DNA of 64,000 nucleotides from Alphaproteobacteria bacterium. Its GTDB lineage: Bacteria; Pseudomonadota; Alphaproteobacteria; VGEJ01. The notes beneath the pieces are model-generated. The model searched no databases. It saw only the letters and a list, made by a program, of their open reading frames with translations, and had not been told where the DNA came from. Below, piece by piece: positions 21,717-37,774 of this stretch. The position numbers were made by a program, and so were the translations under genes. How positions within the stretch are numbered: position 1 is the stretch's first letter; each line of letters opens with the position of its first letter. Location: contig CBDFKF010000003.1 in NCBI GenBank assembly GCA_965248765.1, positions 653,777 through 717,776 of the forward strand. The letters are read 5' to 3'.

Positions 21717-21956
21717 TCACCTAGCCGTAATCTCATCCGGTCTAGTGAGGTCGGTAGCCCGGTAGAGGACCAGCCCGCCGTGGGATTCGAGGCGCGCGAC
21801 CGCCTCGGCAGCCTTGTCATTCGACTGCCGACCCGTGATGGCGAGGCCAGCGCCCTCACGCGCCAGCGCTTCGGCGATGGCAAAGCCGATGCCCTGACGG
21901 AGTCTCGCCCCGGTGACGAGCGCGTTTTTGCCGGTAAGTATCGAACTCTCAGCCAT
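21717..21956 (-). pseudogene. short-chain dehydrogenase/reductase (SDR) N-terminal fragment (79 aa)
   Basis: Rossmann motif LTGKNALVTGARLRQGIGFAIAEALAREGA. The ORF stops after 79 aa and no continuation exists in any frame. Confidence 0.6.
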
Positions 21957-22075: not shown

Positions 22076-23752
22076 TCAATCGCCGCCCGTCTGCGCGGTC
22101 ACGCCATAGTGCTTGTCTGCCTGTTCGGGCGTGATGAGCTCGTTCTTGAGGTCGGCCATGACCTGCTCGCGGGGGCGCCTACGCGGATCGCCATAGCCGC
22201 CGCCACTTGCCGTCGTGATACGCACGATGTCGCCGGCGCCCAGCGCCAGCGCACTGATGCGGGCATAGGATTCCGTCGAGCCGTCAGCGCGAAGGATCTG
22301 CAAGCTGTTCAGTGAACCATCGCGGCCGCCGTCCAAGCCCCAGGGCGGATTGTTGTTGGTGCGCGCATAAAGGCCGGTAAGCCGCGCATCGTCGGCCCGC
22401 ATCCGATAGTCCAGCCGGACGCCGCGGCCGCCGCGGAACTCGCCCTCGCCGCCTTCGTCGGTACGGAAGGCGTATTGCTCGACGAACAGCCCATTGCGCA
22501 CCTCGTTGACCTCGATCGGGCAGTTGAATGTCTCGCCATCACCGGCGCAGAACTGCCCGTTCTCGCCATCGCGACCGGGCCCCGCGCCCCACCCGCCGAG
22601 CTCGGGTTCGACCGAGACCAAGAACTGGCCGGATTCGGGATGGGTCGAGGAGAAGATGGTGCCGCAGACCGAGTGCATGTGACCGGCGCCCAGTCGTTCG
22701 GGCACCACCGGGGCAAGCGCCTTCCAGATCAGATCGAGGGTGTACATCATCGGATCGAAATACATCCCGGCCGACGCCGGCCGTTCGGCATCGAACATCG
22801 AACCCTTGTCGGTCAGCACCTTGAGCGGGCGGAACGTGCCTTCGTTGGTCAGCGACAGCGGCCCTGTCAGCGCCTTGAAGATGATCTGCGCGCCGACCAC
22901 GGTGCACTGGTAAGGGCAGTTGTAAGGTCCCGACACTTGCCCCGGATTACCGCGCAGATCGACGATGAAATCGCCGTTCGCGACAGTGACCTTGACGCGC
23001 GTCTCGTCACCGTCGTCGGTCCTATCCGTGGCCTGGTATGTCCCTTCCGGGATCTCGGCAAGGGCCCGCCGCGAGACCGCCTCGCCATGATCGAGCAGGC
23101 TCGACATCGCGAACGTGACTGTTTCGATATCGTATTTATCGACCATCTCGATGATGCGACGCTCGCCGGTGCGAATAGAGGCAATGCCGGCCCACATGTC
23201 GCCGAGGGTGTAGTCGGGCGTGCGGGTGTTTGCGGTGATCATGTCCATTATCGAAGCGATGGGCTTACCGGCTTCGAACAGCTTGATCTCCGGGAACTGG
23301 ATGCCCTCCTGGAACAGCTCGTCCGCCTCGGTCGAGATGGAGCCATGGACCATGCCGCCGACATCGCCCCAGTGTGCCTTGTTTGCCGTCCACGCGATCA
23401 GCGTCCCGCCATGGAAGACCGGCATGAGCAGCACGATGTCGTTGAGGTGACTGACGCCGCCCGAGTGCGGATCATTGGTGATGAAGATGTCGCCCGGGTG
23501 AATATCGCCCGACGGGCCAAACTTCTTCAGCACCTGCTTGGCGCTGGAATCGAGCATGCCAACGAAGATGGGGATGCCGGCACCCTGGGTCGTGAGTTGG
23601 CCCTTCGCATCCATGACTCCGACTCCGAAGTCCAGCACTTCGTAGATGATAGAGCTCATGGCCGTCCGCCTCATGGCCGCGAACATCTCATCGCAGATTG
23701 AGTGCAGCGAGTTCTGAATGATCTCGATGGTGAAGGGGTCGGAGTTGCGCAT
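22076..23752 (-). CDS. hyuB: hydantoinase B / oxoprolinase B-subunit family protein (HyuB paralog 1)
   Basis: 558 aa. N-terminal DPFTIEIIQNSL..DEMF. NDPHSGGVSHLND. C-terminal TASGGGYGDP. Confidence 0.9.
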   Translation of the reverse strand: MRNSDPFTIEIIQNSLHSICDEMFAAMRRTAMSSIIYEVLDFGVGVMDAKGQLTTQGAGIPIFVGMLDSSAKQVLKKFGPSGDIHPGDIFITNDPHSGGVSHLNDIVLLMPVFHGGTLIAWTANKAHWGDVGGMVHGSISTEADELFQEGIQFPEIKLFEAGKPIASIMDMITANTRTPDYTLGDMWAGIASIRTGERRIIEMVDKYDIETVTFAMSSLLDHGEAVSRRALAEIPEGTYQATDRTDDGDETRVKVTVANGDFIVDLRGNPGQVSGPYNCPYQCTVVGAQIIFKALTGPLSLTNEGTFRPLKVLTDKGSMFDAERPASAGMYFDPMMYTLDLIWKALAPVVPERLGAGHMHSVCGTIFSSTHPESGQFLVSVEPELGGWGAGPGRDGENGQFCAGDGETFNCPIEVNEVRNGLFVEQYAFRTDEGGEGEFRGGRGVRLDYRMRADDARLTGLYARTNNNPPWGLDGGRDGSLNSLQILRADGSTESYARISALALGAGDIVRITTASGGGYGDPRRRPREQVMADLKNELITPEQADKHYGVTAQTGGD

Positions 23753-23771
23753 GGTCCTTGACCTGTCTTAG

Positions 23772-25850
23772 TCAGGCAGCGTCGGTTAGGCCGACGTGCA
23801 GATGAAGATTACCAAAATCGTCGATGGAGATCCGATCGTTGGGGAACACCACGACGGTGGCATCGGGCTCCTCGACGATAGCCGGCCCGGCGATCTCCAT
23901 CCCCGGCTCGAGCCGTGAGCGCTCATAAATTGCCGCCTCGTGGATGCCGTGGACATCGTAGTCGACCACCCGCTCGCCACGCCGGGCCTCGTCGAGCGCG
24001 CGACCGCTGCGCTCCAGCTTCGGCACTATCGGCTTGCCGATTTCGCGCAGCGCCACAAGGTGATAGGTCACGATCTCGACCGGGTTGTCGAGAGTGTAGG
24101 TGTACTCGCGCTCATAGGTCTTGTGGAAAGTCTCAGCGGTCGCGGCGATCGTTTCGGGCTTGATCTCGCCGGGCGGAAACATCACCCGCACGGTATGTTC
24201 CTGGCCCTGATAGCGCATGTCGCCGAAGCGCTCGAACCCAATCTCGGCGGCACCACCGATCTCGCTGTCAGCGAAGTCCGCCACGGCTTGCTGTTCCATG
24301 CCGGCGAACGCGGCCTCGAGCTTGGCGGCCACCGCGTCCTCGAGGGTGCTGAGCTGCGTGAGGACGTAGTCGCGACGCAGATCCGACATCAACATGCCCC
24401 ATGCCGAGAACACCGAGCAGTTCACCGGCACGATGACCTTGGGAATGTTGAGTTCGGCTGCCAGCGCCGAGGCGTGCATGCCCCCGCCGCCGCCGAACGC
24501 GACCAGGGTGAACTCGCGCGGATCGTAGCCGCGATTGAGCGAGACCAACTTGAGTGCATTGATCATGTTGTTGTTGGCGATGCGGATGATACCGCGAGCC
24601 GTCTCCTCCGCCGACATGCCCAACGGTCCGGCCAGCTCGTCGAAGGCGCTCCGGGCCGCCCCCATGTCCGCCTTGATCTCGCCACCCAGGAAGTACTCGG
24701 GATCGATGCGTCCGGTGAGCAGATTGGCGTCGGTGGTGGTGGGATCGTTGCCGCCGCGGCCATAGGCAGCAGGCCCGGGCACCGCGCCCGCACTGTGTGG
24801 ACCAACGTTCAGACGGCCGTCCTCGTCCATCCACGCGATCGAGCCACCGCCCTGGCCGATCTCAACGATGTCGACCGTCGGCACCATGATCGGATAGCCG
24901 GCATAGTCGCGGGTCTTCTCGATGAAGTACTCGGTGGTAATGCGCACCCGCCCATCCTCGATCAGCGAGCACTTCGCAGTGGTGCCGCCAATGTCGAGGG
25001 CGATGATGTTGGGCTCATCGATCAGGCGCCCGAGGGCGCCGGCGCCGAGCACGCCGCTGGCGGGCCCCGATTCGAGCATCGTGATGGCATTGTTCTTGGC
25101 GGCCTCGATGGTATCGACGCCGCCATTCGACTGCATGATCACCGCCTGGCCCTTGAAGCCGCCGCCGCTGAGCTTGCGCTCGAGGCTCTCGAGGTAGCGA
25201 ACCGCGATGGGGTGGATGTAACCCGACAGCACCGTGGTGTTGGTGCGCTCATACTCGCGCCACTCACGGGTCACCTGATGCGAGGCGACGACCGCGACCT
25301 CCGGCCACAGCTCCCGGACTCTCTCAAAAACCGCCGCCTCATGAGCGGGGTTGGCGTAGGCGTGCAGGAAGCAGATCGCGACCGCTTCGACCTGCTCGGC
25401 CTTGAAGAACTCGACGATGGCGGGGATCTCGTCGAGTTCGAGCGAGGTGACCACCTTGCCCATGTAGTCCATACGCTCGGTGACCTCGCGGCGCAGGTAG
25501 CGAGGCACGAACGGCTTCGGCTTCGCATAGCGGAAATTGAACAGGGCTGGGCGGTTGCCGCGCGCGATCTCGAGGACATCACGGAAGCCGTGGGTGGTGA
25601 TCAGCGCGGTGGTCACGCCCTTGCGCTCCGCGAGCGCGTTGATGACGACCGTCGTGCCGTGGGCCAGGAACTCGATGTCCTTGGTCGCGATCCCCGCCTT
25701 CTCGAGCGAGTTCATCACCCCTGCCTCATAGTCAGGCGGGGTGGTGTCGACCTTCGCCGTCTTGACGGCGGAAACCTCGCCGCTCACCGCATCGACCTCG
25801 TAATAGACGAGGTCGGTGAAGGTGCCGCCTACGTCGCTCGCCACACGCAT
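23772..25850 (-). CDS. hyuA: hydantoinase A / oxoprolinase A-subunit family protein (HyuA 1)
   Basis: 692 aa. N-terminal MRVASDVGGTFTDLV. Two ASKHA-type ATPase halves (DIGGTTAKCSL). Confidence 0.9.
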   Translation of the reverse strand: MRVASDVGGTFTDLVYYEVDAVSGEVSAVKTAKVDTTPPDYEAGVMNSLEKAGIATKDIEFLAHGTTVVINALAERKGVTTALITTHGFRDVLEIARGNRPALFNFRYAKPKPFVPRYLRREVTERMDYMGKVVTSLELDEIPAIVEFFKAEQVEAVAICFLHAYANPAHEAAVFERVRELWPEVAVVASHQVTREWREYERTNTTVLSGYIHPIAVRYLESLERKLSGGGFKGQAVIMQSNGGVDTIEAAKNNAITMLESGPASGVLGAGALGRLIDEPNIIALDIGGTTAKCSLIEDGRVRITTEYFIEKTRDYAGYPIMVPTVDIVEIGQGGGSIAWMDEDGRLNVGPHSAGAVPGPAAYGRGGNDPTTTDANLLTGRIDPEYFLGGEIKADMGAARSAFDELAGPLGMSAEETARGIIRIANNNMINALKLVSLNRGYDPREFTLVAFGGGGGMHASALAAELNIPKVIVPVNCSVFSAWGMLMSDLRRDYVLTQLSTLEDAVAAKLEAAFAGMEQQAVADFADSEIGGAAEIGFERFGDMRYQGQEHTVRVMFPPGEIKPETIAATAETFHKTYEREYTYTLDNPVEIVTYHLVALREIGKPIVPKLERSGRALDEARRGERVVDYDVHGIHEAAIYERSRLEPGMEIAGPAIVEEPDATVVVFPNDRISIDDFGNLHLHVGLTDAA

Positions 25851-25894
25851 TACACCCTCTCCCTCGTTCGATCGTTTTTGGCAGTGCGATCAGA

Positions 25895-27553
25895 CTACGC
25901 GGTCACGCCGTAGTACTTGGCCGCCTGTTCGGGCGTGACGAAGCCATTCTTGACATCGTCCAGCACTTTGTCGCGCGGGCGCTCACGCGGATCGCCGTAG
26001 CCACCGCCGTTGGCGGTGATAACACGGACCACGTCGCCGGGCTCGAGCTTGAGTCCACCGGCCCGGTTGTAGTTCTCGATCCGGCCGTCGACGCGGATGA
26101 CGCGGAGGCAGTTCAGCGAGCCGTGCCGGCCGCCATTCAGCCCCCAGGGCGGATTGTCCCGGGTCCGGAAGTAGACGCCGGTGAGCCGTGCATCCTTGGC
26201 CCGGATCTTGTAGTCGAGATAGACGCCCTTGCCGCCGCGGAACGTGCCCTCGCCGCCATCATGATCGTGGAAGGCGTATTGGCCGACGAACAAGCCGTTA
26301 CGCACCTCGTTGATCTCGATCGGGCAGTTGAAGGTCTCGCCGTCGGCCGCACAGAACTGTCCGTTCTCGCCGTCGCGATCAGGCCCGGCACCCCAACCGC
26401 CGGCCTCTGGCTCGACGCAGATGGTGAAGCGGCCGTTGTCGGGGTGAGTGGCCGCGAAGATGGTGCCGCAGACCGAGGTCAAATGGCCGGCGCCGAGCCG
26501 CGCGGGCACATGCGCCGCCATCGCCTTCCACACCAGATCGAGGACCTGGAGATTGGGCTCGGGGAACATCCCGCAGGGGTCGGGACGCTGCGCATCGAAC
26601 AGCGTGCCCGGCTCGGTCAAGACCGTGAGAGGCCGGAACGTACCCGCGTTGGTAACCGAGAGCGGGCCCGTGAGGGCCTTGAAAGTGGCCTGCGCGCCGA
26701 CCACGGCGACGCCGCGCGAGCAGTTGTAGGGAGCCGCCAGCGCCTTCGGATTGTCGCGGAGGTCGACGACGAAGGCATCCGCCGTCACCTCTACCTTGAC
26801 CCGAATGGTCAGATCGTCGTCGGTGAGCTCCTCGGCCTCAAAAACGCCGTGCGGAAGTGCCGCGAGGGCGCGGCGAGAGACCGCTTCACCGTGGTCGAGA
26901 AGATCGTTCATGGCATGAACAACGGTGCTGTAGCCATACTTCTCAGCCAGTTCCGCAACGCGCCATTCGCAGACACGGATCGAGGCGATGCCGGCCCACA
27001 TGTCACCGAGTACCAGGTCGGGAGTACGGCTATTGGCAACGATCATGTCGATCATCGACGGGATCGGCTCGCCGCGCCTGAACAGCTTGACCTCAGGAAA
27101 CTGGATGCCCTCCTGGAACAACTCCGTCGAATCGGTCGAGAGACTGCCAGCCACCTTGCCGCCCACATCGCTCCAATGCGCCTTGTTGGCCGCCCAGGCT
27201 AACAACCGGTTGTCGTGGAAGATCGGCATCACCACAACGACGTCGTTGAGGTGGGTGACGCCGCCGGAGTAGGGATCGTTGGTGATGAAGATGTCGCCGG
27301 GGTGGATGTCGCCAGCGTCGAACTTGCGCATGACCGCCTTGGCGCCCGAATCGAGGACGCCGATGAAGCAGGGGACGCCGGCGCCGGTCGTTAAGAGCTC
27401 GCCCTCTCCTGTCATGATCGCGACGCCGAAGTCCAGAACCTCATAGATGGTCGAGGTCATCGCCGTGCGCCGCGTGATGGCGAACATCTCATCGGTGATG
27501 GCGTGCAGCGAGTTCTGAATGATCTCGATGGTGAAGGGATCGTCGAGCTTCAT
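25895..27553 (-). CDS. hyuB: HyuB paralog 2 (start at internal Met MKLDDPFTIEI of ORF 25895..27700)
   Basis: About 70% identical by eye to the neighbouring HyuB paralogs. C-terminal TANGGGYGDPRERP. Confidence 0.9.
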   Translation of the reverse strand: MKLDDPFTIEIIQNSLHAITDEMFAITRRTAMTSTIYEVLDFGVAIMTGEGELLTTGAGVPCFIGVLDSGAKAVMRKFDAGDIHPGDIFITNDPYSGGVTHLNDVVVVMPIFHDNRLLAWAANKAHWSDVGGKVAGSLSTDSTELFQEGIQFPEVKLFRRGEPIPSMIDMIVANSRTPDLVLGDMWAGIASIRVCEWRVAELAEKYGYSTVVHAMNDLLDHGEAVSRRALAALPHGVFEAEELTDDDLTIRVKVEVTADAFVVDLRDNPKALAAPYNCSRGVAVVGAQATFKALTGPLSVTNAGTFRPLTVLTEPGTLFDAQRPDPCGMFPEPNLQVLDLVWKAMAAHVPARLGAGHLTSVCGTIFAATHPDNGRFTICVEPEAGGWGAGPDRDGENGQFCAADGETFNCPIEINEVRNGLFVGQYAFHDHDGGEGTFRGGKGVYLDYKIRAKDARLTGVYFRTRDNPPWGLNGGRHGSLNCLRVIRVDGRIENYNRAGGLKLEPGDVVRVITANGGGYGDPRERPRDKVLDDVKNGFVTPEQAAKYYGVTA

Positions 27554-27590
27554 TGCCAGCTCTCTGCTGGTCCGCGCGTTGCGCCGGTCC

Positions 27591-29255
27591 TCAGGGGGTG
27601 ACGCCATAGTACTTGGTCGCCTGCTCCGGCGTAACGAAGCCATTCTTGACATCGTCGAGCACCTTGTCGCGCGGGCGCTCGCGCGGATCGCCGTAACCAC
27701 CGCCCGTCGCGGTGGTGATACGAACGATGTCGCCCGGCTCGAGGTTTAGGGCGCTGATGCGATTGTAGCTATCTTCCGAGCCGTCCCGGCGCACGATCGT
27801 GAGACTGTTGAGGGAGCCGGACCGACCCCCATTGAGGCCCCATGGCGGGTTGCCGCTGCTGCGCGCGTAGAGCCCGGTCAGCTGGGCATCGTCCGCGCGC
27901 ATCCGATAATCGAGAACGACGCCTTTTCCGCCGCGGAACCTGCCCTCACCGCCTTCGGCGGTGTGGAAAGCATAGCGGTCGACGAAGAGGCCGTTGCGCG
28001 CCTCGGCGACCTCAACAGGGCAGTTGTAGGTCTCGCCATCCGCCACACAGTATTGGCCGTTCAGCCCATCAGCCTCGGCCGTCGCGCCCCAGCCGCCGAG
28101 CTCTGGCTCGATCGTGATCACATAGCGGCCGGTATCGGGGTGAGTGGCGGCGAACGCGGTCGCGCACACCGAATGCAGGGTGCCGGCCCCGAGGCGCTCG
28201 GGCACGACCGGCGCCATCGCCTTCCAGACCAGCTCCGTCGCATACATGGCCGAGTCGAAGTAGACCCCCGCCGAGGCCGGTGGCTCGGCATGGAACATGG
28301 TACCCGTGCGAGTCAGCACTTGGAGCGGGCGAAACGATCCATCGTTGCACACCGAAAAAGGACTCGTCAGCGCCTTGAAGATCACCCGCACGCCGGCCAT
28401 CGTGCACAAATGCGGGCAGTTGAAGGCTCCCGGCAGCGGCCCTGGGTTGTCGCGCAGATCGACGACGAAGTCCTCGCCATCGACCGTGACCGCGACCCGT
28501 ATGGGGAGACCGTTGTCCATCCGGTCCTCGGCCTCGTAGACACCATTGGGCAGCTCCGCCACAGCCCGGCGCGACACCGCCTCGGCGTGGTCGAGAACAC
28601 TCTCCATTGCCAGTTCAACCGCCCCGACGCCGTACTTCTCGGCCATCTCGCGAACCCGCCGCTCGCCGCAGCGGATCGAAGCGACGCCCGCCCACATATC
28701 GCCAAGCACCTGCTCGTGCGCGCGGCTGTTGGCAGCGATCATGTCGAGCACCGACGGGAGAGGGCGGCCGCGCTCGAATAGCTTGACCTCGGGGAACAGT
28801 ATGCCCTCCTGGAACAGCTCGGCGGCGTCGGTCGCGATGCCACCAGCCACCATGCCGCCAATATCGCCCCAATGGGCCTTGTTGCCGGTCCAAGCGATCA
28901 CCCGATCGCCATGGAAGACCGGCATGATGAGCGCAACGTCGTTCAGATGGGTGACCCCGCCCGAGTGCGGATCGTTGGTCATGAAGATGTCGCCCGGGTG
29001 GATGTCGTTGCGCGGACCGAACTTGGCGATCATCGCCTTCGTCGCCGCATCGAGCGTGCCGATGAAGATCGGCACGCCAGCACCCTGCGAGGCCAGCTCT
29101 CCGGTGGCGTTGGTCGTGCCGACGCCAAAATCGAGCACCTCGTAGATGATTGAGCTCATCGCGGCCTTGCGCATGACCGCGAACATCTCGTCACAAACGG
29201 CGGCAAGCGAGCCTTGGATGATCTCGATGGTGAAGGGATCGTGGTCGCGCGGCAT
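27591..29255 (-). CDS. hyuB: HyuB paralog 3
   Basis: 554 aa. MPRDHDPFTIEIIQGSL... C-terminal TATGGGYGDPRERPRDKVLDDVKNGFVTPEQA, nearly identical to the paralog 2 C-terminus. Confidence 0.9.
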   Translation of the reverse strand: MPRDHDPFTIEIIQGSLAAVCDEMFAVMRKAAMSSIIYEVLDFGVGTTNATGELASQGAGVPIFIGTLDAATKAMIAKFGPRNDIHPGDIFMTNDPHSGGVTHLNDVALIMPVFHGDRVIAWTGNKAHWGDIGGMVAGGIATDAAELFQEGILFPEVKLFERGRPLPSVLDMIAANSRAHEQVLGDMWAGVASIRCGERRVREMAEKYGVGAVELAMESVLDHAEAVSRRAVAELPNGVYEAEDRMDNGLPIRVAVTVDGEDFVVDLRDNPGPLPGAFNCPHLCTMAGVRVIFKALTSPFSVCNDGSFRPLQVLTRTGTMFHAEPPASAGVYFDSAMYATELVWKAMAPVVPERLGAGTLHSVCATAFAATHPDTGRYVITIEPELGGWGATAEADGLNGQYCVADGETYNCPVEVAEARNGLFVDRYAFHTAEGGEGRFRGGKGVVLDYRMRADDAQLTGLYARSSGNPPWGLNGGRSGSLNSLTIVRRDGSEDSYNRISALNLEPGDIVRITTATGGGYGDPRERPRDKVLDDVKNGFVTPEQATKYYGVTP

Positions 29256-29265
29256 CGCCCGTCCC

Positions 29266-30285
29266 CTACTTCCAGACCTCGCGCGCGATCCTCAGGTAGT
29301 TCTCGCCGAAGATGCCGCGGATGTCGGGCTCGGTGTAGCCTCGCCGCAGCATTTCCTCGGTCAGGGCCGGCAGCTGCTCAGGCTGGAAGAACTGCGCCGG
29401 CGGGTCATCGCCGTAGTCGCGCCAATAGCGATCCTTGTTGGCGAGGAAGAACTGATTCCAACCCTCAAGGTCGTAGACCAGGTCGATGCCAAGGCCGACA
29501 TGCGCCGGGCCCGCCACTTCGACGATATGATCGAGGTGGCGCATGAAGGCCTCGACCGAGGCATCGTCCTCGCCGAGGAAGATGCCGACGCCGGTGACGC
29601 CGACGAGCCCGCCGGTGGCGGCGCACGCCTTGATCTGATCGTCGTGGATATTGCGGCCGTGGTCGGTGAGGACGCGGGCGTTGGAATGCGAGAACACGAC
29701 AGGCTGGGTGGTGATATCCAGCGCCTGCATGGTCGCGCGATAGCCGGTGTGGGAGCAGTCGAGCAGCATGCCGACCCGGTTCATCTCGACGACGAGATCG
29801 CCACCGAATTGGCTCAAGCCTCCGTCCGCCGCCTCGTGACAGCCGTCGGCGGCGAGGTTGCGGACATTGTAGGCGAGGATCATCTGGCGGACGCCGAGCT
29901 TGTAGTAGGCCTCGACCAGGCTGAGATCGCCGCCAAGCCCGTTCGAGCCCTGGAAGTTGAAGCCGACCGCGAGCTTGCCTTGCGCCTTTGCGCGGACGAT
30001 ATCATCCGCGGTCTCGACCAGGACGTAGCGATCTGGCTCGGCGAGAAAGCGCCCGCGTTGTTGGGCGAGGTGCCGGAACGTAGCCTCGATCCACGTCCAA
30101 TCGTCGGCCAGCGTGAGCGACACGAAATCGACGCCGGCCGCGGGATAACGCGGTAACACCGCCTCACGCGCTTCCTCTTTGAGATCCTCCTCCCAGTTGA
30201 CGGTTATGTCGCAGATCATGGCCTCAGCCACTAGCGCCGCCGCGCGCGCAGCAAGATCGGGTTCGTGGACAGATTGCTCGCTCAT
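29266..30285 (-). CDS. membrane (renal-type) dipeptidase, peptidase family M19
   Basis: Starts at internal Met MSEQSVHEPDL of ORF 29266..30414. M19-like segments ICDITVNWEE, DCSHTG, HLDHIVEVAGPAHVGLGIDLVYD. Confidence 0.8.
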   Translation of the reverse strand: MSEQSVHEPDLAARAAALVAEAMICDITVNWEEDLKEEAREAVLPRYPAAGVDFVSLTLADDWTWIEATFRHLAQQRGRFLAEPDRYVLVETADDIVRAKAQGKLAVGFNFQGSNGLGGDLSLVEAYYKLGVRQMILAYNVRNLAADGCHEAADGGLSQFGGDLVVEMNRVGMLLDCSHTGYRATMQALDITTQPVVFSHSNARVLTDHGRNIHDDQIKACAATGGLVGVTGVGIFLGEDDASVEAFMRHLDHIVEVAGPAHVGLGIDLVYDLEGWNQFFLANKDRYWRDYGDDPPAQFFQPEQLPALTEEMLRRGYTEPDIRGIFGENYLRIAREVWK

Positions 30286-30296
30286 GGGCTCGTCAC

Positions 30297-31322
30297 CTAG
30301 GTTGCCGCAGCCGCGGCGGCGCGGATCGGGCCGTGATCGCCGGCGGCAGGGTTGAGACACGCAGCGCTGTGGTCCGCGCCGAAGTCGCTGAACTCGGGAG
30401 TCCTTTCCCAGCAATGGTCAAGCGCGTACGGGCAACGCGGCGCAAAGTCGCAGCCGTCCGACGAACGCTCCTCACCTTGCAGCAGGTCGCGGCTCCACGG
30501 CCATTGAGGGCGGTGCGCCTCCTCCGCCGCCGAGACGACCGGTACCGAGGAGAGGAGCATCATCGTGTAACGATGGCGGGGCTCGGCGAACACGACCTCG
30601 GTCGGGCCAATCTCGACGACGCGCCCGCGATACATCACCGCGATTCGCGAGGTCATGTTCCGCACAACGCCGAGGTCATGGGTGATGAACAAATAGGTCA
30701 GACTGAAGCGGCTCTGGAGGTCGGCAAGGAGTCGGAGAACCAGCGCCTGAACGGAGACATCGAGGGCGGAAGTGGGTTCATCGAGAATGACGAGGTCCGG
30801 GTTCGCAGCCAACGCGCGGGCCAACGCGGCGCGCTGCCGCTGACCGCCCGAGAGCGCGCCCGGATAACGGTCGGTGTATTCGGGCGGTAGCCCAACGATT
30901 TCCAGCAACTCGATCACCCGCTTCCGCGCCTCGCTCGCGGTGTGCACCATGTCGTGGACGCGCAGCGGCAGCTCAACGGCTTGGCGTATCGTGCGCTTCG
31001 GGTTCAGGGTCGAGAGCGGGTTTTGCTGCACCACCTGGATCCTGCGTCGCAGCGGCCGCGGCCGGTCGGGGCGGAGCGCCTCGCCATCAAAGCGGATGTC
31101 TCCCGAACTGGGCGCCTCGATGCCAAGAATGAGCTTGGCCAAGGTGGTTTTGCCCGACCCCGATTCACCGACAATCGCCATGCTCTCACCGGCTTCCACC
31201 CGCAGGCTCACCCCGTCCAGCGCTTTCACAGTGCGGCGGCCGACCGCGTAGTGCTTGCGCAGATCGGCGACCTCGAGCAGCGGCTCAGGCACGCGCCGCC
31301 CCAAGCTGTTCCGGCTCGGCAT
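30297..31322 (-). CDS. peptide/opine-type ABC transporter ATP-binding protein (DppF/OppF-like) with C-terminal oligopeptide ATPase extension
   Basis: Walker A GESGSGKTT, signature LSGGQRQRAALARAL, Walker B ILDEPTSALD. Confidence 0.85.
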   Translation of the reverse strand: MPSRNSLGRRVPEPLLEVADLRKHYAVGRRTVKALDGVSLRVEAGESMAIVGESGSGKTTLAKLILGIEAPSSGDIRFDGEALRPDRPRPLRRRIQVVQQNPLSTLNPKRTIRQAVELPLRVHDMVHTASEARKRVIELLEIVGLPPEYTDRYPGALSGGQRQRAALARALAANPDLVILDEPTSALDVSVQALVLRLLADLQSRFSLTYLFITHDLGVVRNMTSRIAVMYRGRVVEIGPTEVVFAEPRHRYTMMLLSSVPVVSAAEEAHRPQWPWSRDLLQGEERSSDGCDFAPRCPYALDHCWERTPEFSDFGADHSAACLNPAAGDHGPIRAAAAAAT

Positions 31323-32274
31323 CGAGGATGCAGGCCATACGATGTCCGGCGCCGAGGTCGACCACCGGCGGCTGCTCCTCGCAAATTGGCTGGGCGTAAG
31401 GGCAGCGCGGATGAAACCGGCAGCCCGCTGGTGCCGCCGTATAGTCAGGCACCATGCCGTCGATCGGGCGCGGCAGACTGCCTCCTGTCAATTTGGGCAC
31501 CGCATCGAGCAAAGCACGCGTATACGGATGCGCGGGCCGTGAGAACAGCGTCTCGACGTCCGCCTCCTCGACGATCGAGCCCGCGTACATCACATAGACG
31601 CGCTGGGCGAACTCACGGACGACACCGAGATTGTGGGTGATGATGAGGACCGCCGCCTGCGATTCCTCTGTGAGTTCCCGCATCAAGAGCAGCGTTTGTT
31701 CCTGGACGGTCACATCGAGCGCAGAGCCGGGCTCGTCGGCAAGCACGAGCTCCGGTCGGTTGACCAGCGCCATCGTGATCAAGACGCGTTGCGCGAGCCC
31801 GCCGGAGAGCTGGAACGGATAGGCCGCGAGGACACGGTCCGGATCGACGATCGCGACCCGGCGCAAGGCCTCGCAGGCGATCTCGTAGGCCTCTTGCCTG
31901 CCCTGTGCGCCGCCGCCGCGCCGGATCACGTTCAGTAGCTGATCGCGGATCGTGAACACCGGGTTCAACGCCGCGGTAGGATCCTGGAAGATCATGGAAA
32001 TACGCCGCCCGCGGATCCCACCCCAAGCGCTCTCGCGGAGCCCCACGAGCTCTTCGTCGTGAAAGCGGATCGAGCCGGCGATCGAGACGTTGCGTTGGCG
32101 TAGCAAGCCGAGGATCGCGCGCACCGTCACTGACTTGCCGCAGCCCGACTCGCCGACGATCGCCACCCGCTCGCCCTTCTCCACCCGCAGGTTGATGCCG
32201 TTGAGCACGTGCGAGAGGCCCTCGAACATCGAGAACCGAAGGTGCAGATCCGCGATCTCTAAGAGCGGCGCCAC
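31285..32274 (-). CDS. peptide-type ABC transporter ATP-binding protein (DppD/OppD-like)
   Basis: Walker A GESGCGKS, signature LSGGLAQRVLITMAL, Walker B LADEPGSALD. C-terminal Cys pair. Confidence 0.85.
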   Translation of the reverse strand: MAPLLEIADLHLRFSMFEGLSHVLNGINLRVEKGERVAIVGESGCGKSVTVRAILGLLRQRNVSIAGSIRFHDEELVGLRESAWGGIRGRRISMIFQDPTAALNPVFTIRDQLLNVIRRGGGAQGRQEAYEIACEALRRVAIVDPDRVLAAYPFQLSGGLAQRVLITMALVNRPELVLADEPGSALDVTVQEQTLLLMRELTEESQAAVLIITHNLGVVREFAQRVYVMYAGSIVEEADVETLFSRPAHPYTRALLDAVPKLTGGSLPRPIDGMVPDYTAAPAGCRFHPRCPYAQPICEEQPPVVDLGAGHRMACILDAEPEQLGAARA

Positions 32275-32277
32275 GTT

Positions 32278-33126
32278 CTAGACCTCGACGTGAAGCACGT
32301 CGCGCAGGCCATCACCCAGTAAGCTGAAGCCAAGGACGATGACCATGATGCCGATGCTCGGGAACACCGGCATCCACCAACCGTCGGTGATAAAATCCAT
32401 GCCCTCCGCAACCATACGGCCGAGATCCGGGGTCGGCGGCTGGACCCCGAGGCCCACGAATCCGAGGGCGGCGACGATGATGATGACGAAGGCCATATCC
32501 AACGTCACCTTGGTCAGAATGCTGGGCACGCAGTTGGGGAGGATCTCGCGGAACAGGATGTGGGCGTGCGATGCGCCAACGACCCGGGCCGCCACCACGA
32601 AGTCCTCGGTACGGATGGAGCGGGTCAGGTTGTAGACCATGCGCGTGGTCCACGGCCACCATAGCGCCGAGATCGCGATCATGACGTTGACCATCGAGGG
32701 CGGCAGAACACCAACGATCGCCATTCCTAGGACCAGGGGCGGGAGTGCCAGGAAGATGTCTGTGAGCCGCATGACGACGGTCTCAATGCGCCCGCCGAAA
32801 TAGCCGCCAACGAGCCCGAGGATCACGCCGATCGGCACCGCTATCCCCAAAACGACGACCCCCAGGCCGAACGACACTCGGTAGGCGTGTACGAGCCGAG
32901 AAAAGACGTCGCGGCCCATGTTGTCGGTGCCGAACATATTGCGCTCGCCAGGTGGCGCGCTCGCGTTCTTGAAGTCCACGAACATGCCGGTGTGCTCGGG
33001 ATACGGCGTGACGTTGGGCGCGAACGTGGTGGCAAGAACGATGATGACGACGATCGCCAAGCCGACCACGGATAGCGGGTTCCGGGCGAACTGGTACCAC
33101 GCCCGGGACCGCCGCCAGATCCTCAC
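32278..33126 (-). CDS. peptide-type ABC transporter permease (DppC-like); GTG start overlapping the upstream stop (GTGA)
   Basis: TM-rich. N-terminal WYQFARNPLSVVGLAIVVIIVL typical of DppC. The longer ORF to 33294 is an upstream in-frame extension. Confidence 0.75.
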   Translation of the reverse strand: MRIWRRSRAWYQFARNPLSVVGLAIVVIIVLATTFAPNVTPYPEHTGMFVDFKNASAPPGERNMFGTDNMGRDVFSRLVHAYRVSFGLGVVVLGIAVPIGVILGLVGGYFGGRIETVVMRLTDIFLALPPLVLGMAIVGVLPPSMVNVMIAISALWWPWTTRMVYNLTRSIRTEDFVVAARVVGASHAHILFREILPNCVPSILTKVTLDMAFVIIIVAALGFVGLGVQPPTPDLGRMVAEGMDFITDGWWMPVFPSIGIMVIVLGFSLLGDGLRDVLHVEV

Positions 33127-34148
33127 CGCGCCTCTCCTTGCAAGCGGATGCGCGGGTTGATGTAGGCGACCAGGAGATCGACCACGATGTTCACGACCAC
33201 GAACATCAAGCCGATCACGAGCACGGTGCCAACGATGGCGTTGAGGTCCTTTTGCAGTATCGCGTAGACGCCGTAGCGCGCTAGGCCCGGCCAATTGAAC
33301 ACGACCTCGACCAGGAAGGCCGAGCCCAGCATGACCGAAAAATCGAGCCCCAGAACCGTGAGCGTCGGGATCATCGCCGGCCTCAGCGCATACTTGAAAG
33401 CGATGGAGCGTTCCGAGAAGTTGAAGGCTCGCGCCATCTCAATGTATTGCCGGCCATAGGTTTCGACCATGTTGGCACGGGTGAGCCGGGCGGCTTGGCC
33501 GAGCCCAGCGAGCGCCAGCGCGATCGCCGGCAGGATCAGGTGCGAAAGCGCATCCCAAAACGCCCTCCCGTCTCCCGCCACCAGGGCGTCAAGCGTATAG
33601 AAGCCGCTGAAGTGCTCGGGCCTGATCATCGGGTCGACAAGTCGGCCCGCCACCGGCAACAGGCCGAGGGTGTGACCGAACACCAGCATCAGGATGATGG
33701 CCCAGACAAAGCTCGGGCTCACCACCCCCAACAGCGCAACGATCCGCGAGGCGTTGTCGATCGGTCCGTCTCGGTAGCGTGCCGCGACCACCCCGAGCGG
33801 GATGCCAAATACGATCATCACCACGCCGGCGGCGATGACGAGTTCCAAGGTCGCGGGCAGAAAATCGGCGATGTTCTGGGATACCGGGCTCTTGTGGAAG
33901 GTCGACTCGCCGAGATCTCCGCGCGACAGCCCCTTTAGGAACTCCCAGTACTGCACTGGGATCGGATCGTTTAGATGCAGTCGGTCGCGATAGAGATCGA
34001 CCATCTCTTGAGACGCCTTGTAGCCCAGTGCGAGCCGTGCCGGATCGCCCGGGATCACCCGCGCGACGACGAAGATCAGGATCGACAGCCCGATCATGAC
34101 CAGGGCGCCCAGGACGAGCCGCCGCCCAAGGAATCGCAGCACGATCAT
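33123..34148 (-). CDS. peptide-type ABC transporter permease (DppB-like)
   Basis: 341 aa. N-terminal MIVLRFLGRRLVLGALVMIGLSILIFVVARVIPGDPA typical of DppB/OppB. Confidence 0.85.
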   Translation of the reverse strand: MIVLRFLGRRLVLGALVMIGLSILIFVVARVIPGDPARLALGYKASQEMVDLYRDRLHLNDPIPVQYWEFLKGLSRGDLGESTFHKSPVSQNIADFLPATLELVIAAGVVMIVFGIPLGVVAARYRDGPIDNASRIVALLGVVSPSFVWAIILMLVFGHTLGLLPVAGRLVDPMIRPEHFSGFYTLDALVAGDGRAFWDALSHLILPAIALALAGLGQAARLTRANMVETYGRQYIEMARAFNFSERSIAFKYALRPAMIPTLTVLGLDFSVMLGSAFLVEVVFNWPGLARYGVYAILQKDLNAIVGTVLVIGLMFVVVNIVVDLLVAYINPRIRLQGEAR

Positions 34149-34234
34149 CGTCTGAACCTAGCGTCAAAAAAAGCAAGTGGCGGCGGCCACCGCTGGGCCG
34201 CCGCCACGTCTAAACCGATCCAACCGATAGGTTT

Positions 34235-35833
34235 TCAGTTGACCTCGGTGAGCCGGAAGTTGAAGTCGGCCCAGATAAAGCCTGTGAGCTTGGCCGGATC
34301 TTCGAAGGGAAGCGTGACGGCGTCGCGCTTCGCATAGACAGCGATCGAATCGAAGGCGAACACGTTGGGCTGTTCCGCGATGATCGCGCGCTGCACTTCC
34401 TTGTACAGATCCTCACGCTTGGCCGCATTGGTCTCCCCCCGCGCCGCTTCGAGCATCGCGTCGACCTTGTCGTTCAGCAGCCACTCCGTCGAGCTCCACA
34501 GGCCCTTGCCGCTCGAGTGGTACAGCTCGTAGAGAAGCGGATCGATGTCCGGCGTCGCCGCGTTGTGGATCACGAACTGGACGTTGCCAGAAGTCTCGAT
34601 CGCCCCGGCGCGCTCGATGAACGCGGGAAAGGTGAGCTCCGTGAGCTCGGCCTTGACGCCGATCTCGGCCAAGTTGGCAGCCACCAGAAGCGCGATCTTC
34701 TGGTGGAGGAAACAGCAAAGGTGCGAAATGACCTCGACCGGCGGCCAGGTATTGGCATCGTATTCCGCGAGTTCGAGTTCTTTCTTCGCCGCCGCCAAAT
34801 CGCGGCTTCCCGGCGTTAGGCCTTTGTCATAGCCCATCATGCCGCCGGGGATCGGGCCTCGAGCGGGGGCGCCGGCGAACAGGCCTTCCTTGATCTTGAT
34901 GATGTCCTGCAGTGCCTCGTAGTCGGTCGCGTACGCGAGCGCTCTACGAATGTGAACATTGTCGGTGGGCGCAAGCTTGGTGTTGATTTTGATATAGCCG
35001 GCGCCGGTCTGCGGCTCGCCTACCGCCGAGATGCCGTCGACCTTGTCGAGCGCGGAGTAGGTCTCGTAGGGCTGCCACATCGACGAGACGTCGTGCTCGC
35101 CGCGCTCCATCAGCGCCCGAAGGGTCGCCGGCTCGAGGCTGTAGCGCATGCGCGCCTCGTCGGGCGATTTGGGGCCGAATGGTAGCCAATATCCGTCGAA
35201 CCGCTTCATGACAGTGAGCTCTTGCTTGTTGTGCGAGATCACCGTGTAAGCGCCCGAGCCGGCGTCGTTGCTCTCCAGATAGGCGCGGCCATAGTCGCCG
35301 AGATCGCCAAAGTCGCCGTCCTTTATGTTAGCCAGCAACAGCTTCTTGTTAATGATTGGCAGTCGGACCAGGGCGGCCAGGAACGGCGCATAGGGCCGCT
35401 CCAGCGTAAACGTCACCGTGTGCGAGTCGGCCGCCTCGGCAGATTTCACCCAGCCCCTGAACAGATGCGAGTAACCGAGCGCGAGGGTGACCATCCGATC
35501 CAGCGAGAACACCACGTCTTCGGATGTCATGGGCGTCCCGTCGTGAAACTTCACGTCGGTCCGCATCTTGAAGGTGTGGACGAGCCCGTCGTCCGAGGAT
35601 GTCCAGCTCTCCGCCACGTGAGGGATGACTTTGCCGCCAGGGCCGACCCACACCAACGTGTCGTAGATATTGGACACCAGGATCAAATCGGCGAAATCGG
35701 TGGCGTGAGCCGGGTCGAACTCGCCGACTGCGGCCTCCTCCATGCTGAAGACGCGCTTGTCCTGCGCCTCAGCGACGGCCAGCGGCAAGGCAACGACCGC
35801 TGCTGCCACCGCGCCAATAATTCGCGATCTCAT
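34235..35833 (-). CDS. ABC transporter periplasmic substrate-binding protein, family 5 (DppA/OppA-like)
   Basis: 532 aa with signal peptide MRSRIIGAVAAAVVALPLAVAEA and family-5 SBP length and composition. Confidence 0.8.
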   Translation of the reverse strand: MRSRIIGAVAAAVVALPLAVAEAQDKRVFSMEEAAVGEFDPAHATDFADLILVSNIYDTLVWVGPGGKVIPHVAESWTSSDDGLVHTFKMRTDVKFHDGTPMTSEDVVFSLDRMVTLALGYSHLFRGWVKSAEAADSHTVTFTLERPYAPFLAALVRLPIINKKLLLANIKDGDFGDLGDYGRAYLESNDAGSGAYTVISHNKQELTVMKRFDGYWLPFGPKSPDEARMRYSLEPATLRALMERGEHDVSSMWQPYETYSALDKVDGISAVGEPQTGAGYIKINTKLAPTDNVHIRRALAYATDYEALQDIIKIKEGLFAGAPARGPIPGGMMGYDKGLTPGSRDLAAAKKELELAEYDANTWPPVEVISHLCCFLHQKIALLVAANLAEIGVKAELTELTFPAFIERAGAIETSGNVQFVIHNAATPDIDPLLYELYHSSGKGLWSSTEWLLNDKVDAMLEAARGETNAAKREDLYKEVQRAIIAEQPNVFAFDSIAVYAKRDAVTLPFEDPAKLTGFIWADFNFRLTEVN

Positions 35834-35949
35834 CTTCGTCCTCCCTTGTGGTTCAACGCTCTTTTTCGCGAGGATACTTGGGCGGGCCGAGTGCCGTCAA
35901 ACTCGACCGCGCCCCGATGGCAAGGAAGCTGTTGCTAGCCCGAGTAGCC

Positions 35950-36017: not shown

Positions 36018-37769
36018 ATGCAGCAAGCGGCGAGTACTACCCGCAACAACGGGACAACCGACCACGTCACCCTCGAGATCATCTGGGGCAAGCTGCGTGC
36101 GGCGGCCGACGAGATGGGCGTGGTTCTGGCGCGTTCGAGCATGAGTCCGGTTATCTACGAGGTCTTGGACTTCGCCTGCGGCATTTGCGATGCGCAAGCC
36201 CAGCTCGTCTCCCAGACCAACGGCATCACAGTCTTTACAGGCACCTTCCAGGGTCACGTCCAAACCGTGATCCGCAAGTTCGGCGGCGACATGCAGCCCG
36301 GCGACATCCTCATGGTGAACGACCCGTTCACCGGCGGCACCCATCTGTCGGACGTCGGCATCGTCAAGCCGGTCTTCGTCGACGGTGAGGTCCTCGCGTA
36401 CGCCATTGCCGTCGCGCACTGGACCGAGATCGGCGGCAGCGTGCCGGGCTCGCTGTCGCCCGAAGCCACCGAGATTTTCCACGAAGGCCTGCGCTTCCCC
36501 GGCCTCAAGATCTACCGCGAGGGTGAACCCCAGCAGGATCTGTTCGATCTCATCGCCGCCAACGTCCGCCTGCCAAAGATGACTCTTGGCGACCTCAACG
36601 CCGAGATCGCGGCGGTGAAGATCGCCGATACCCGCCTCCAGGAGATCTTCGGAAAGTATGGTGCTCAGGCCGTGATCGAGAGCTTTGAGCACCTGATGGA
36701 GCAAAGTGAGAAGGTGAGCCGCGCTGCGATCGCGGCATTGCCTGACGGCGTCTACGAAGCCAAAGACCTGATCGACGGCGATGGCTTCAGCGACGAGCAG
36801 ATCCCGGTTCAGGTCGAGGTCCGCATCGCCGGCGACGAGATCACCTTCGATTTCACCGGCACCAGTGCTCAGCGCAAAGGTCCTCTGAACTGCGCCCGTG
36901 GCGCCACCCTTTCGGCCGTCAAGACGGTCTTCAAAGCGCTGGTCGATCCGCAGGCGCCCTCCAACGAGGGATGGTTCCGACCGATCAACGTCGAAGTGCC
37001 GGACGGGACGGTGTTTAGCGCCGAGTACCCCCAGGCGGTCGGCTGGTACTTCGAGATGACGGGGCAGATCTCCGAGCTGGCCTGGAAGGCGCTGGCGCCG
37101 CTCGCGCCAGAGCGCTTCAGCGTTGGCAGCTTCATGAGCCTCTGCGCCACCATCTTCTATGGCACATCGCCCGAAAATGACGAGCAATTCGTCATCGTCG
37201 AGCCACATATGGGTGGCTGGGGCGCGACCCACGACCAGGACGGCGCGAGCGTTCTGATCGGCACCGCCGACGGTGATACCTACAACTATTCGGTGGAATT
37301 GCTGGAGGCGAAGTACCCGGTGCGCTGTCAGCGCTACGCCATGAACGTGGAGGACGGCGCTGGCCCGGGCCGTCATCGCGGTGGCTTCGGCGTGGTGCGG
37401 GAGTACGAGATGCTTGCCGAGAATGTGCATCTCTACGCCAGCCTGGGGCGCTCAGTCGAGCGCCCGTGGGGTCTCGCGGGCGGCGGCCACGGCACCAACA
37501 ATTACCTCGAGGTGGTAAGCAACGGGGATCGCTGGCGCGGCGCGCGCGTTCCGACCACCCAGCTGAAACGTGGCGATTACGTCCGTATCGTTACCGGCGG
37601 CGGCGGTGGCTACGGCATTGCGGCCGAACGGCCGGCTGAGGACGTGGCCGAGGACGTGAGCGACGGTTTCTTGACCGCGGAGCGAGCCCGCGAGCAGTAC
37701 CAGGTCGTGCTCGGGACCGACGGTGCCGTCGATCGGAACGCCACCGCGGCGCTCCGTCAAGCCGGCTAG
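36018..37769 (+). CDS. hyuB: HyuB paralog 4 (start at internal Met MQQAASTTRNN of ORF 35742..37769)
   Basis: DHVTLEIIWGKL...NDPFTGGTHLSD...VTGGGGGYG. About 75% identical by eye to paralog 5 at 39825. Confidence 0.9.
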   Translation: MQQAASTTRNNGTTDHVTLEIIWGKLRAAADEMGVVLARSSMSPVIYEVLDFACGICDAQAQLVSQTNGITVFTGTFQGHVQTVIRKFGGDMQPGDILMVNDPFTGGTHLSDVGIVKPVFVDGEVLAYAIAVAHWTEIGGSVPGSLSPEATEIFHEGLRFPGLKIYREGEPQQDLFDLIAANVRLPKMTLGDLNAEIAAVKIADTRLQEIFGKYGAQAVIESFEHLMEQSEKVSRAAIAALPDGVYEAKDLIDGDGFSDEQIPVQVEVRIAGDEITFDFTGTSAQRKGPLNCARGATLSAVKTVFKALVDPQAPSNEGWFRPINVEVPDGTVFSAEYPQAVGWYFEMTGQISELAWKALAPLAPERFSVGSFMSLCATIFYGTSPENDEQFVIVEPHMGGWGATHDQDGASVLIGTADGDTYNYSVELLEAKYPVRCQRYAMNVEDGAGPGRHRGGFGVVREYEMLAENVHLYASLGRSVERPWGLAGGGHGTNNYLEVVSNGDRWRGARVPTTQLKRGDYVRIVTGGGGGYGIAAERPAEDVAEDVSDGFLTAERAREQYQVVLGTDGAVDRNATAALRQAG

Positions 37770-37774
37770 GCGGC

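Follow-up and report, generated by a model that had tools for sequence, protein, structure and literature searches.

A single hydantoinase α subunit gene with three β subunit paralogues next to a peptide-type importer in an uncultured alphaproteobacterium

Gene content and organisation of the cluster

The stretch of alphaproteobacterial DNA analysed here (64,000 nucleotides, positions 653,777 to 717,776 of contig CBDFKF010000003.1, hereafter the window) contains at 22076-35833, on the minus strand, ten tightly packed genes for a peptide-type importer, an amidohydrolase-like protein and the subunits of an ATP-dependent hydantoinase-type enzyme, whose α subunit (HydA) is encoded once and whose β subunit (HydB) is encoded three times. 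Scans of the open reading frames (ORFs) and Pfam domains confirmed the genes, domains and minus-strand order that a preceding sequence-only reading had described. The run begins with the family-5 substrate-binding protein (SBP) of the importer (SBP_bac_5, 34235-35833; 532 aa; PF00496, 2.3e-64), followed by a permease of the DppB/OppB type (permease B, 33123-34148; 341 aa; PF00528 and PF19300), a permease of the DppC/OppC type (permease C, 32278-33126; 282 aa with a GTG start; PF00528 and PF12911) and two ABC ATPases with PF00005 and PF08352 domains, one of the DppD/OppD type (ATPase D, 31285-32274; 329 aa) and one of the DppF/OppF type (ATPase F, 30297-31322; 341 aa). An amidohydrolase of the M19 fold (29266-30285; 339 aa; PF01244, 278 bits) separates the importer from the enzyme genes, which comprise the β (metal/hydrolysis) subunit paralogues HydB3 (27591-29255; 554 aa) and HydB2 (25895-27553; 552 aa), the α (ATP-binding, ASKHA-fold) subunit HydA1 (23772-25850; 692 aa; PF05378, PF01968 and PF19278) and, in the canonical position downstream of hydA, HydB1 (22076-23752; 558 aa). 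Further downstream lies a stub of a short-chain dehydrogenase/reductase (SDR) gene (adh_short, 21720-21956, minus strand), which has 79 codons and covers the N-terminal 65 of 195 Pfam positions before it meets a stop; it is a remnant, and is present also in the closely related locus L001 (L-numbers denote related loci, of which L001-L005, L090 and L091 come from metagenome assemblies).

The long ORFs of permease C, the M19-fold gene and hydB2 were shortened according to alignments and gene calls in relatives. The start of HydB2 was placed at MKLDDPFTIEII, and that of permease C matches 282-aa gene calls in L001 and L090 and has the ribosome-binding-site-like sequence aaggagag upstream. Overlaps within the run do not exceed 38 bp, and gaps do not exceed 86 bp: permeases B and C overlap by 4 bp and ATPases D and F by 38 bp, and the gaps measure 3 bp from permease C to ATPase D, 11 bp from ATPase F to the M19-fold gene, 10 bp from there to hydB3, 37 bp from hydB3 to hydB2, 44 bp from hydB2 to hydA1 and 19 bp from hydA1 to hydB1, with 119 bp between hydB1 and the SDR stub. 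The gaps of 11 and 37 bp given by the sequence-only reading are essentially right. The widest gap (86 bp), between the SBP gene and permease B, holds a GC-rich hairpin of 12 pairs followed by a T-run (34177-34207, minus strand). In relatives a different GC-rich inverted repeat occurs at the same place, so that each sequence has a hairpin, and the alignment of this spacer is too poor for covariation. The hairpin is probably an attenuator or an mRNA stabiliser that raises the ratio of SBP to permease. The 184 bp upstream of the SBP gene, which separate it from a divergent gene cluster, contain a promoter-like -35/-10 pair (TTGACG-18-TATCCT, 35871-35900, minus strand), which is a match to the consensus alone (4 such sites found versus 2.6 expected).

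No terminator-like sites were found from the ATPase genes to hydB1. Because of this, the short spacing and the gene order conserved in relatives (see below), the importer, M19-fold and B-B-A-B genes are probably co-transcribed as a catabolic module of an uncultured alphaproteobacterium. The single operon proposed earlier is borne out to the extent that the organisation is operon-like and that the importer-M19-B-B-A order is kept in four metagenomic lineages. The "single HyuA" of the same proposal is accurate for this strand run, of which HydA1 is the sole α gene, but 184 bp upstream, on the opposite strand, another HydB-HydA-HydB set starts. The importer consequently sits between two Hyd clusters, the BBAB set and the divergent one, and not beside one only.

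Within the run, hydA1 and hydB1 represent a canonical A-B pair, and two further full-length hydB genes precede hydA, unlike in two-gene hydA-hydB clusters. Hydantoinase clusters are described to "consist of only two genes" in the order hydAB (PMC5214803), and hydantoinase-type enzymes as (αβ)2 (PMC5214803, PMC8453981). It is this departure from the two-gene layout that is novel; the membership of the proteins in the hydantoinase/oxoprolinase superfamily stands. What appears new, then, is the presence of three putatively functional β genes per α gene, as opposed to the described two-gene (αβ)2 pattern, in a clade in which extra β genes are frequent.

HydA1 and the three HydB paralogues

HydA1 possesses the ATP-site motifs of the ASKHA fold (DxGGTxTD, DxGGT and GxxPGP) in the form of D6VGGTFTD (P1), D286IGGT (P2) and G355AVPGP (adenosine). 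All three HydB match PF02538 over its full length (HydB3, positions 1-519 of 519, 6e-155; HydB2, 3.3e-149; HydB1, 6.4e-161), and with E-values from 1e-149 to 1e-161 chance is excluded. In the β subunit of caprolactamase, CapB, the metal ligands are Asp41, His99, Asp102 and His124, and their mutation abolishes activity (PMC8453981). All four ligands of this Asp-His-Asp-His tetrad remain in HydB3 (D42/H103/D106/H128), HydB2 (D41/H101/D104/H126) and HydB1 (D41/H102/D105/H127), as well as in all five other intact HydB copies of the window.

The three paralogues are mutually 64-67% identical. Compared with orthologues in two related metagenomic contigs, at a synonymous divergence (dS) of about 0.8-1.0, the ratio of nonsynonymous to synonymous substitutions (dN/dS) is 0.09-0.14 for HydB1, 0.14 for HydB2 and 0.17-0.18 for HydB3, and that of HydA1 against its orthologues is 0.08-0.13. 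In a bootstrapped neighbour-joining tree HydB1, HydB2 and HydB3 form separate orthologue clades with bootstrap values of 99, 100 and 86; the HydB3 clade includes L001, L002, L004 and L091, the HydB2 clade includes L001 and L004, and the HydB1 clade is sister (bootstrap 89) to the single HydB of an ordinary A-B pair in L006. Since each paralogue forms an orthologue clade of its own, the duplications predate the split of these lineages. As judged from the tree and the substitution ratios, the hydB duplications are old and all three copies have been maintained as intact genes. Decay of HyuB2 or HyuB3 into pseudogenes, which the sequence-only reading had named among the findings that would overturn it, is countered by the full Pfam coverage, the metal tetrad and the low dN/dS of both.

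Conservation among the paralogues is unevenly distributed. The N-terminal helix region that docks to CapA in caprolactamase is invariant among HydB1-HydB3 at 53% of positions and the B-B interface region at 48%; the corresponding values for the linker, the mixed sheet and the C-terminal domain are 19-35%. Differences fixed in a lineage or paralogue group concentrate in the mixed-sheet domain, where they make up 18% of the columns versus 3-9% elsewhere. HydB2 has the most divergent predicted pocket, with residues unlike those of HydB1 and HydB3 at positions 62 (C), 136 (L), 336 (P), 339 (N) and 386 (C), and at position 38 (CapB numbering) the copies here have Glu where CapB has Leu. This distribution would fit three β subunits that can all dock to one α subunit, and possibly to each other, with different pockets.

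Recurrence of the arrangement in related genomes

The sequence-only reading had proposed that conservation of the gene order be checked across Rhizobiales. The importer-M19-B-B-A order recurs in four lineages, all from metagenome assemblies. L001/L090 is the closest of them (HydA1 99% identical in L001; L090 is the same locus at strain level, with an SBP identity of 99%, on a 1.02-Mb contig that ends inside hydA), followed by L091 (89%, with a partial hydA at the contig end), L002/L003 (87%) and L004/L005 (81%), in which ATPase F, the second ATPase gene, has been lost and a second M19-like gene stands upstream of the SBP gene. A trailing hydB downstream of hydA is present in all three lineages that are readable that far (L001, L002/L003 and L004/L005). 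Each of these three keeps exactly three hydB genes, and every lineage has at least two hydB genes upstream of hydA.

The set of paralogues nevertheless varies. The window and L004 share B3-B2-A-B1, as opposed to B0-B3-A-B1 in L002 and B0-B3-A, followed by the contig end, in L091; B0 represents a fourth, more divergent HydB group that is 53-57% identical to HydB1-HydB3. The BBAB set of L002 is closely followed by companion B-A genes. The same locus carries at 9568-10000, between the second hydB and hydA, a non-coding insert of 433 bp with several inverted repeats, where the window has 44 bp. The interpretation of this insert as a remnant of hydB2 was rejected: it contains no B-like coding remnant, only a conserved sequence that is the 3' end of the preceding gene. 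Likewise, an HydB of L002 was considered as a chimeric or gene-converted sequence and this was rejected, its sliding-window identity being B3-like throughout.

Relatives of HydA1 at 70% and 65% identity belong to plain A-B pairs in other contexts, and a scan of 185,579 species genomes with HydA1 gave a best identity of only 65%. A megablast search of the 14-kb region against PLSDB plasmids returned only three trivial matches of 50-100 bp, and no record in the assembly index contains the exact HydA1 sequence.

Extra hydB genes are common in relatives. We scanned the 80 species-level genome loci returned for HydA1 (56-65% identity) with hidden Markov models built from the window's own proteins. 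One hydA with one hydB was found in 36 of the 80 loci, one hydA with two hydB in 26, two hydA with three hydB in ten and two hydA with two hydB in eight; thus more B than A genes occur in 36/80 loci (~45%), and none of the 80 has the 1A:3B arrangement. The metal tetrad is kept in all 166 full-length HydB sequences from 89 related loci. In Gammaproteobacteria and Paracoccaceae the second B copies fall into separate, old clades, and in other lineages they are recent duplicates. In the literature we found no description of clusters with multiple hydB genes, nor of a cyclic-dipeptide hydrolase of the Hyd type, and a paper on Corynebacterium glutamicum "hyuB" deals with the use of creatinine and creatine and describes no multi-hydB cluster. 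The sequence-only reading had known of no precedent in characterised systems for three B-type subunits per A subunit. This holds, but extra hydB genes are not unique to the window: an excess of B over A genes is a common, though undescribed, pattern of which the locus represents the extreme, and the oddity belongs to the clade and is not singular.

A family-5 SBP gene is present in 33 of the 80 loci and a gene for an M24 creatinase/prolidase-like enzyme in 24. An M19-like gene in an equivalent role was found in L012 only, and an amidase-signature enzyme in L092-L094. A small GAF-domain protein of ~165 aa is encoded immediately upstream of hydA, often overlapping its start, in 29/80 loci (e.g. 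L008, 9501-10001); it is absent from the window.

The importer

The importer has the Dpp/Opp (PepT-type) architecture, with a family-5 SBP, two BPD_transp_1 permeases that carry OppB/OppC N-terminal domains, and two ATPases with oligo_HPY domains. In this it shares the five-gene architecture and the oligo_HPY tails of the DppABCDF and GsiABCD importers, but its scores lie far below every equivalog cut-off and one related lineage lacks the second ATPase gene. The SBP falls below the cut-offs of all NCBIfam equivalogs (DppA, GsiB, NikA, OppA, CntA), its best scores being 142 bits for GsiB (cut-off 594) and 116 for DppA (cut-off 1005). Its closest solved structures are YliB/GsiB, AapF, HbpA and DppA, and its nearest relatives by sequence are all uncharacterised. 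Where DppA has the amine-binding Asp, the SBP has Ala; the solved chain in the alignment shows Arg at this position, its wild-type residue being unconfirmed.

In L092-L094 a homologous transporter is immediately preceded, in the same direction of transcription, by an orthologous B-A pair (counterparts of the first HydB and the HydA of the divergent companion cluster, 78% identity). The SBP of this transporter is 59% identical to that of the window, and the amidase-signature enzyme follows the transporter. Because the orthologues of the companion B-A genes are co-directional with such a transporter, the importer of the window probably feeds both flanking Hyd clusters.

The M19-fold protein

The protein encoded between importer and hydB3 clearly has the PF01244 fold (cut-off 26 bits), although the match begins only at profile position 30, and it matches no NCBIfam family. 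In alignments with DPEP1, Sco3058 and 2I5G the protein has TxN (CDITVNW) in place of the strand-1 HxD, Gln (FNFQGSN) for the bridging Glu and Tyr for the equivalent of His152, so that four canonical catalytic or metal-binding residues are gone; the two β-site His (His198 and His219) and the Asp of strand 8 (Asp288) are retained. These positions follow the site numbering of DPEP1, which we take to be H20/D22, Glu125, His152, His198, His219 and Asp288 and which was checked against alignments of 1ITQ, 9H0B and 3ID7. The same residue pattern occurs in the orthologues of L001, L002, L004 and L091. The M19 family proper, represented by human DPEP1 (1ITQ) and Streptomyces Sco3058 (3ID7), has the fold, the two β-site His and the strand-8 Asp in common with this protein, but not the HxD, the bridging Glu and the His152. 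The best solved match is 2I5G (1.5e-43), an uncharacterised "amidohydrolase" of Pseudomonas aeruginosa that shares the Gln and the Tyr.

With a dN/dS of 0.10-0.21 against its orthologues, the M19-fold gene is under purifying selection and therefore has some function. Given the loss of the HxD, the bridging Glu and His152, canonical dipeptidase chemistry can not be assumed, and by its residue pattern the protein belongs to a divergent subgroup similar to 2I5G and is no canonical binuclear-zinc dipeptidase. The "M19 dipeptidase" of the sequence-only reading is accordingly right in its fold, but a dipeptidase step is not established. The wider logic of that reading, which coupled an importer to ring opening and a second hydrolase, is supported by relatives, in which an M24 or amidase-signature enzyme takes the place of the M19-fold protein. 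Some lineages possess a second type of M19-like paralogue (motif NVQETN / TLPW), 46% identical to the M19-like protein of the operon, upstream of the SBP gene; it is located at 1-936 in L004 and L005, at 956-1987 in L091 and at 6971-8578 in L012.

Comparison with characterised systems

ATP-dependent hydantoinase/oxoprolinase-type enzymes open very stable lactams and are of interest for nylon monomers, creatinine sensing and oxoproline metabolism. The top solved relative of both subunits is the ATP-dependent N-methylhydantoinase (PDB 7HK5/9H03; HydA1 against 7HK5, 2.9e-128; HydB1, 6.6e-80). It performs the ATP-driven opening of a five-membered cyclic amide and has the Glu at CapB position 38 in common with the HydB copies here. 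However, 7HK5/9H03 is a single fused A-B chain of 1288 residues and the enzyme of P. putida 77 is an α2β2 protein with a 1:1 ratio, and orthology to either is not established. Domain scans found no genes of the creatinine pathway (creatinine deaminase, N-carbamoylsarcosine amidase, sarcosine oxidase) in the window.

Caprolactamase CapAB of P. jessenii (PDB 6YRA) and the lactamase OplBA of P. putida are likewise two-subunit ATP-dependent hydrolases of cyclic amides. The ASKHA ATP motifs of the α subunit and the Asp-His-Asp-His site of the β subunit are both kept here (HydA1 against 6YRA_A, 5.9e-114; HydB1 against 6YRA_B, 1.4e-63). CapAB nevertheless has a single gene for each subunit, ordered B-A, and forms (αβ)2, as opposed to one A and three B genes here; the hydrophobic pocket of CapB (L38 and the vicinal C410-C411) is not conserved; and the context of CapAB is a lactam/aminocaproate pathway instead of a peptide-type importer. 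The NCBIfam models of CapA and CapB (NF050156/NF050157) give 522 bits for HydA1 and 252, 229 and 268 bits for HydB1, HydB2 and HydB3, below the cut-off of 1000. The structure of CapAB is built as A-B·B-A, with a core of two B subunits (interface residues 129-174), one A per B and a tunnel that connects the ATP site with the metal site (PMC8453981).

The one characterised enzyme whose complex retains both paralogues of a duplicated core subunit is acetophenone carboxylase (Apc) of Aromatoleum aromaticum (PDB 5L9W), an (αα'βγ)2 complex in which the two are non-equivalent (PMC5214803). Apc belongs to the same superfamily, but its duplicated subunit is the α (HydA-type) and not the β subunit, and it is a carboxylase that needs γ and ε subunits; Pfam detects no γ-subunit (Acetone_carb_G) gene in the operon. 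The Apc equivalogs are not reached either (ApcC, 295 bits versus 1500; ApcD, 74-90 versus 1500).

The nearest known parallel to the combination of an importer with lactam opening of the HyuA/HyuB type is the catabolism of agropinic acid on octopine-type Ti plasmids, for which Lyi, Jafri and Winans reportedly described in 1999 an importer (agaDBCA) together with a hydantoinase-like lactamase (agaF/agaG) of one A and one B. AgaA (6HLX) is only a distant match to the SBP (2.6e-21, ranked 15th), and the locus has no other opine genes and no Ti-plasmid context, which places it outside the opine-lactam systems.

A shared α subunit and alternative β subunits

From these observations we infer how HydB and HydA pair, how labour is divided among the HydB copies, in which order the reactions proceed and what kind of substrate is used. 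The importer of the Dpp/Opp family would take up a small peptide-like compound with a stable cyclic amide of the lactam, hydantoin or diketopiperazine type. HydA1 would activate the ring carbonyl with ATP, by analogy to CapAB probably as a phospho-imidate, and the activated intermediate would pass to the Asp-His-Asp-His site of a HydB, where the ring would be hydrolysed. Since the family is built as A-B·B-A around a B-B core, it is most likely that the three diverged HydB share the single HydA, either in competition or in combination, and form alternative cores of two copies of one HydB and/or mixed B-B' cores that would differ in their pockets. With such alternative β cores, one ATP-activating subunit would be able to serve a broader set of related cyclic amides or ring bonds. 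The M19-fold amidohydrolase would then cleave a second amide bond of the ring-opened product. We lean towards this scheme as a whole, with its importer, its shared HydA1, its alternative or mixed HydB cores and its second amide cleavage, at a little better than even confidence.

Several points weigh against it. The strong hairpin and its T-run behind the SBP gene may act as a genuine terminator, and a regulator gene was looked for near the operon and not found. The dS values behind the selection estimates are near saturation; the pocket positions were mapped from a 4-Å structure of CapB through alignments of ~30% identity, and two alignments disagree around CapB positions 408-411. HydB2 and HydB3 could pair, instead of with HydA1, with another of the four HydA encoded in the window. 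Finally, the M19-fold protein, which is devoid of the α-site metal ligands, may not hydrolyse the ring-opened product at all.

The strongest competitor, which we consider unlikely but not negligible, is an obligate hetero-oligomer in which the B paralogues are fixed, non-equivalent members of one complex (e.g. A2·B·B' or larger) acting on one substrate. A B-B dimer core is inherent to the family (PMC8453981), and Apc is a case in which duplication of a core subunit gave rise to a second, obligate one (PMC5214803). In Gammaproteobacteria and Paracoccaceae a single A occurs together with old B and B' clades that are conserved separately, HydB1, HydB2 and HydB3 closely resemble one another in the B-B interface region, and the number of hydB genes is constant at three in the fully readable lineages, with no fewer than two upstream of hydA in any. 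Yet the paralogue set varies between B3-B2-A-B1 and B0-B3-A(-B1), which interchangeable modules fit better, and all copies have a complete metal site, which obligate structural partners often lose.

Improbable in our view is mere redundancy or dosage, according to which the extra hydB genes are tandem duplicates in a rapidly changing region rich in insertion sequences (IS), functionally undiverged and kept for the supply of β subunits or not yet lost. The window is indeed rich in IS, its broken genes include a hydB with a frameshift (4719-6606), the pieces of a gene of the Old Yellow Enzyme (OYE) type and the SDR stub, and it packs eight hydB genes into 64 kb; on the other hand, dS between the 64-67% identical paralogues is saturated, and they are hence old, purifying selection on each copy goes back to a time before the lineages split, group-specific differences are fixed, some of them at predicted pocket positions, and 36/80 distant relatives also keep extra HydB with intact metal sites. 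No better placed is the assumption that HydB2 and HydB3 serve a HydA elsewhere, such as that of the divergent cluster, or act alone as metal hydrolases, so that the stoichiometry would not be 3:1: four HydA and eight HydB genes in the window, the position of the importer between two Hyd clusters and the companion B-A genes downstream of the BBAB set in L002 speak for it, but HydB2 and HydB3 resemble HydB1 far more closely (64-67%) than the companion-cluster B copies (37-42%), HydA1 and the companion HydA are 49% identical, the A-docking N-terminal helix is nearly identical in HydB1, HydB2 and HydB3, and we found no report of stand-alone HydB activity in the literature.

The shared-α scheme permits a bolder generalization, which we offer with considerable doubt: a combinatorial ring-opening amidase, in which one α subunit works with interchangeable β subunits from at least four groups (B0-B3), could be a widespread, undescribed feature of the family, employed here for imported peptide-derived cyclic amides such as diketopiperazines and pyroglutamyl peptides. 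In the literature we found no bacterial enzyme identified for the ring-opening step in the catabolism of these two classes of compounds. As to the substrate itself, pyroglutamyl peptides, diketopiperazines, opine lactams and rings of the substituted hydantoin or creatinine-like kind come into consideration, each of which is unlikely when taken singly. The available clues are that the SBP is nearest to binders of the glutathione and dipeptide type, that N-methylhydantoinase comes closest to the Hyd subunits, ahead of caprolactamase, and that the pocket has Glu at position 38.

If one α subunit drives several β subunits or mixed β cores, the substrate range of these enzymes could be engineered through exchange of β subunits, and the annotation of "hydantoinase B" in genomes would need rethinking. 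The recurring association of Hyd genes with peptide-type importers and a second amide hydrolase moreover points to an uncharacterised route for cyclic peptide-like compounds.

Neighbouring Hyd clusters and genomic surroundings

The window as a whole holds eight intact HydB and four HydA genes. The divergent companion cluster (36018-42827, plus strand) consists of HydB (36018-37769), HydA (37775-39820), a second HydB (39825-41582) and a MetE-like protein (41655-42827), of which only the Meth_synt_2 C-domain is present. Between its two B copies the identity is 67%. The idea that B-A-B represents an ancient module with an upstream-type and a downstream-type B was rejected for the first two clusters, because the paralogues group by cluster (64-67% identity within and 37-42% between clusters).

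A HydA-HydB pair is encoded at 51419-55275 on the minus strand (HydA 53200-55275, HydB 51419-53203), followed by a pyridoxal phosphate-dependent decarboxylase (50136-51638), and a third B-A-B set occupies 57564-63316 on the same strand (HydB 61514-63316, HydA 59404-61500, HydB 57564-59402). The two B copies of this third set are only 30% identical, i.e. two very different β types flank one α. On the plus strand, 47252-49893 encodes a short HydA-like ASKHA protein of 518 aa without the C-terminal domain, together with an S-Me-THD/DUF917 protein. A tungsten-type aldehyde:ferredoxin oxidoreductase (AFOR_N and AFOR_C domains) is encoded at 42912-44849 (minus strand), in an alphaproteobacterium, and recurs beside related Hyd/transporter loci in L090 and L092-L094.

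The remaining observations concern decayed genes and IS elements. The broken hydB at 4719-6606 (minus strand) consists of two overlapping ORFs in different frames, which cover Pfam positions 1-315 and 317-479, and it adjoins IS5-like transposase genes (2301-3812 and 7899-8984). An istA/istB pair of the IS21 type and an adjoining gene similar to Old Yellow Enzyme and 2,4-dienoyl-CoA reductase, split into at least three ORF pieces, are found at 11663-13923 and 14720-16756 (plus strand), in a patch rich in IS where several genes have decayed. The SDR stub is followed at ~21560-21590 (minus strand) by three tandem copies of TCATTGCTGG. An ArfB-like peptidyl-tRNA hydrolase with a GGQ motif (10383-10805, minus strand) stands alone among IS elements.

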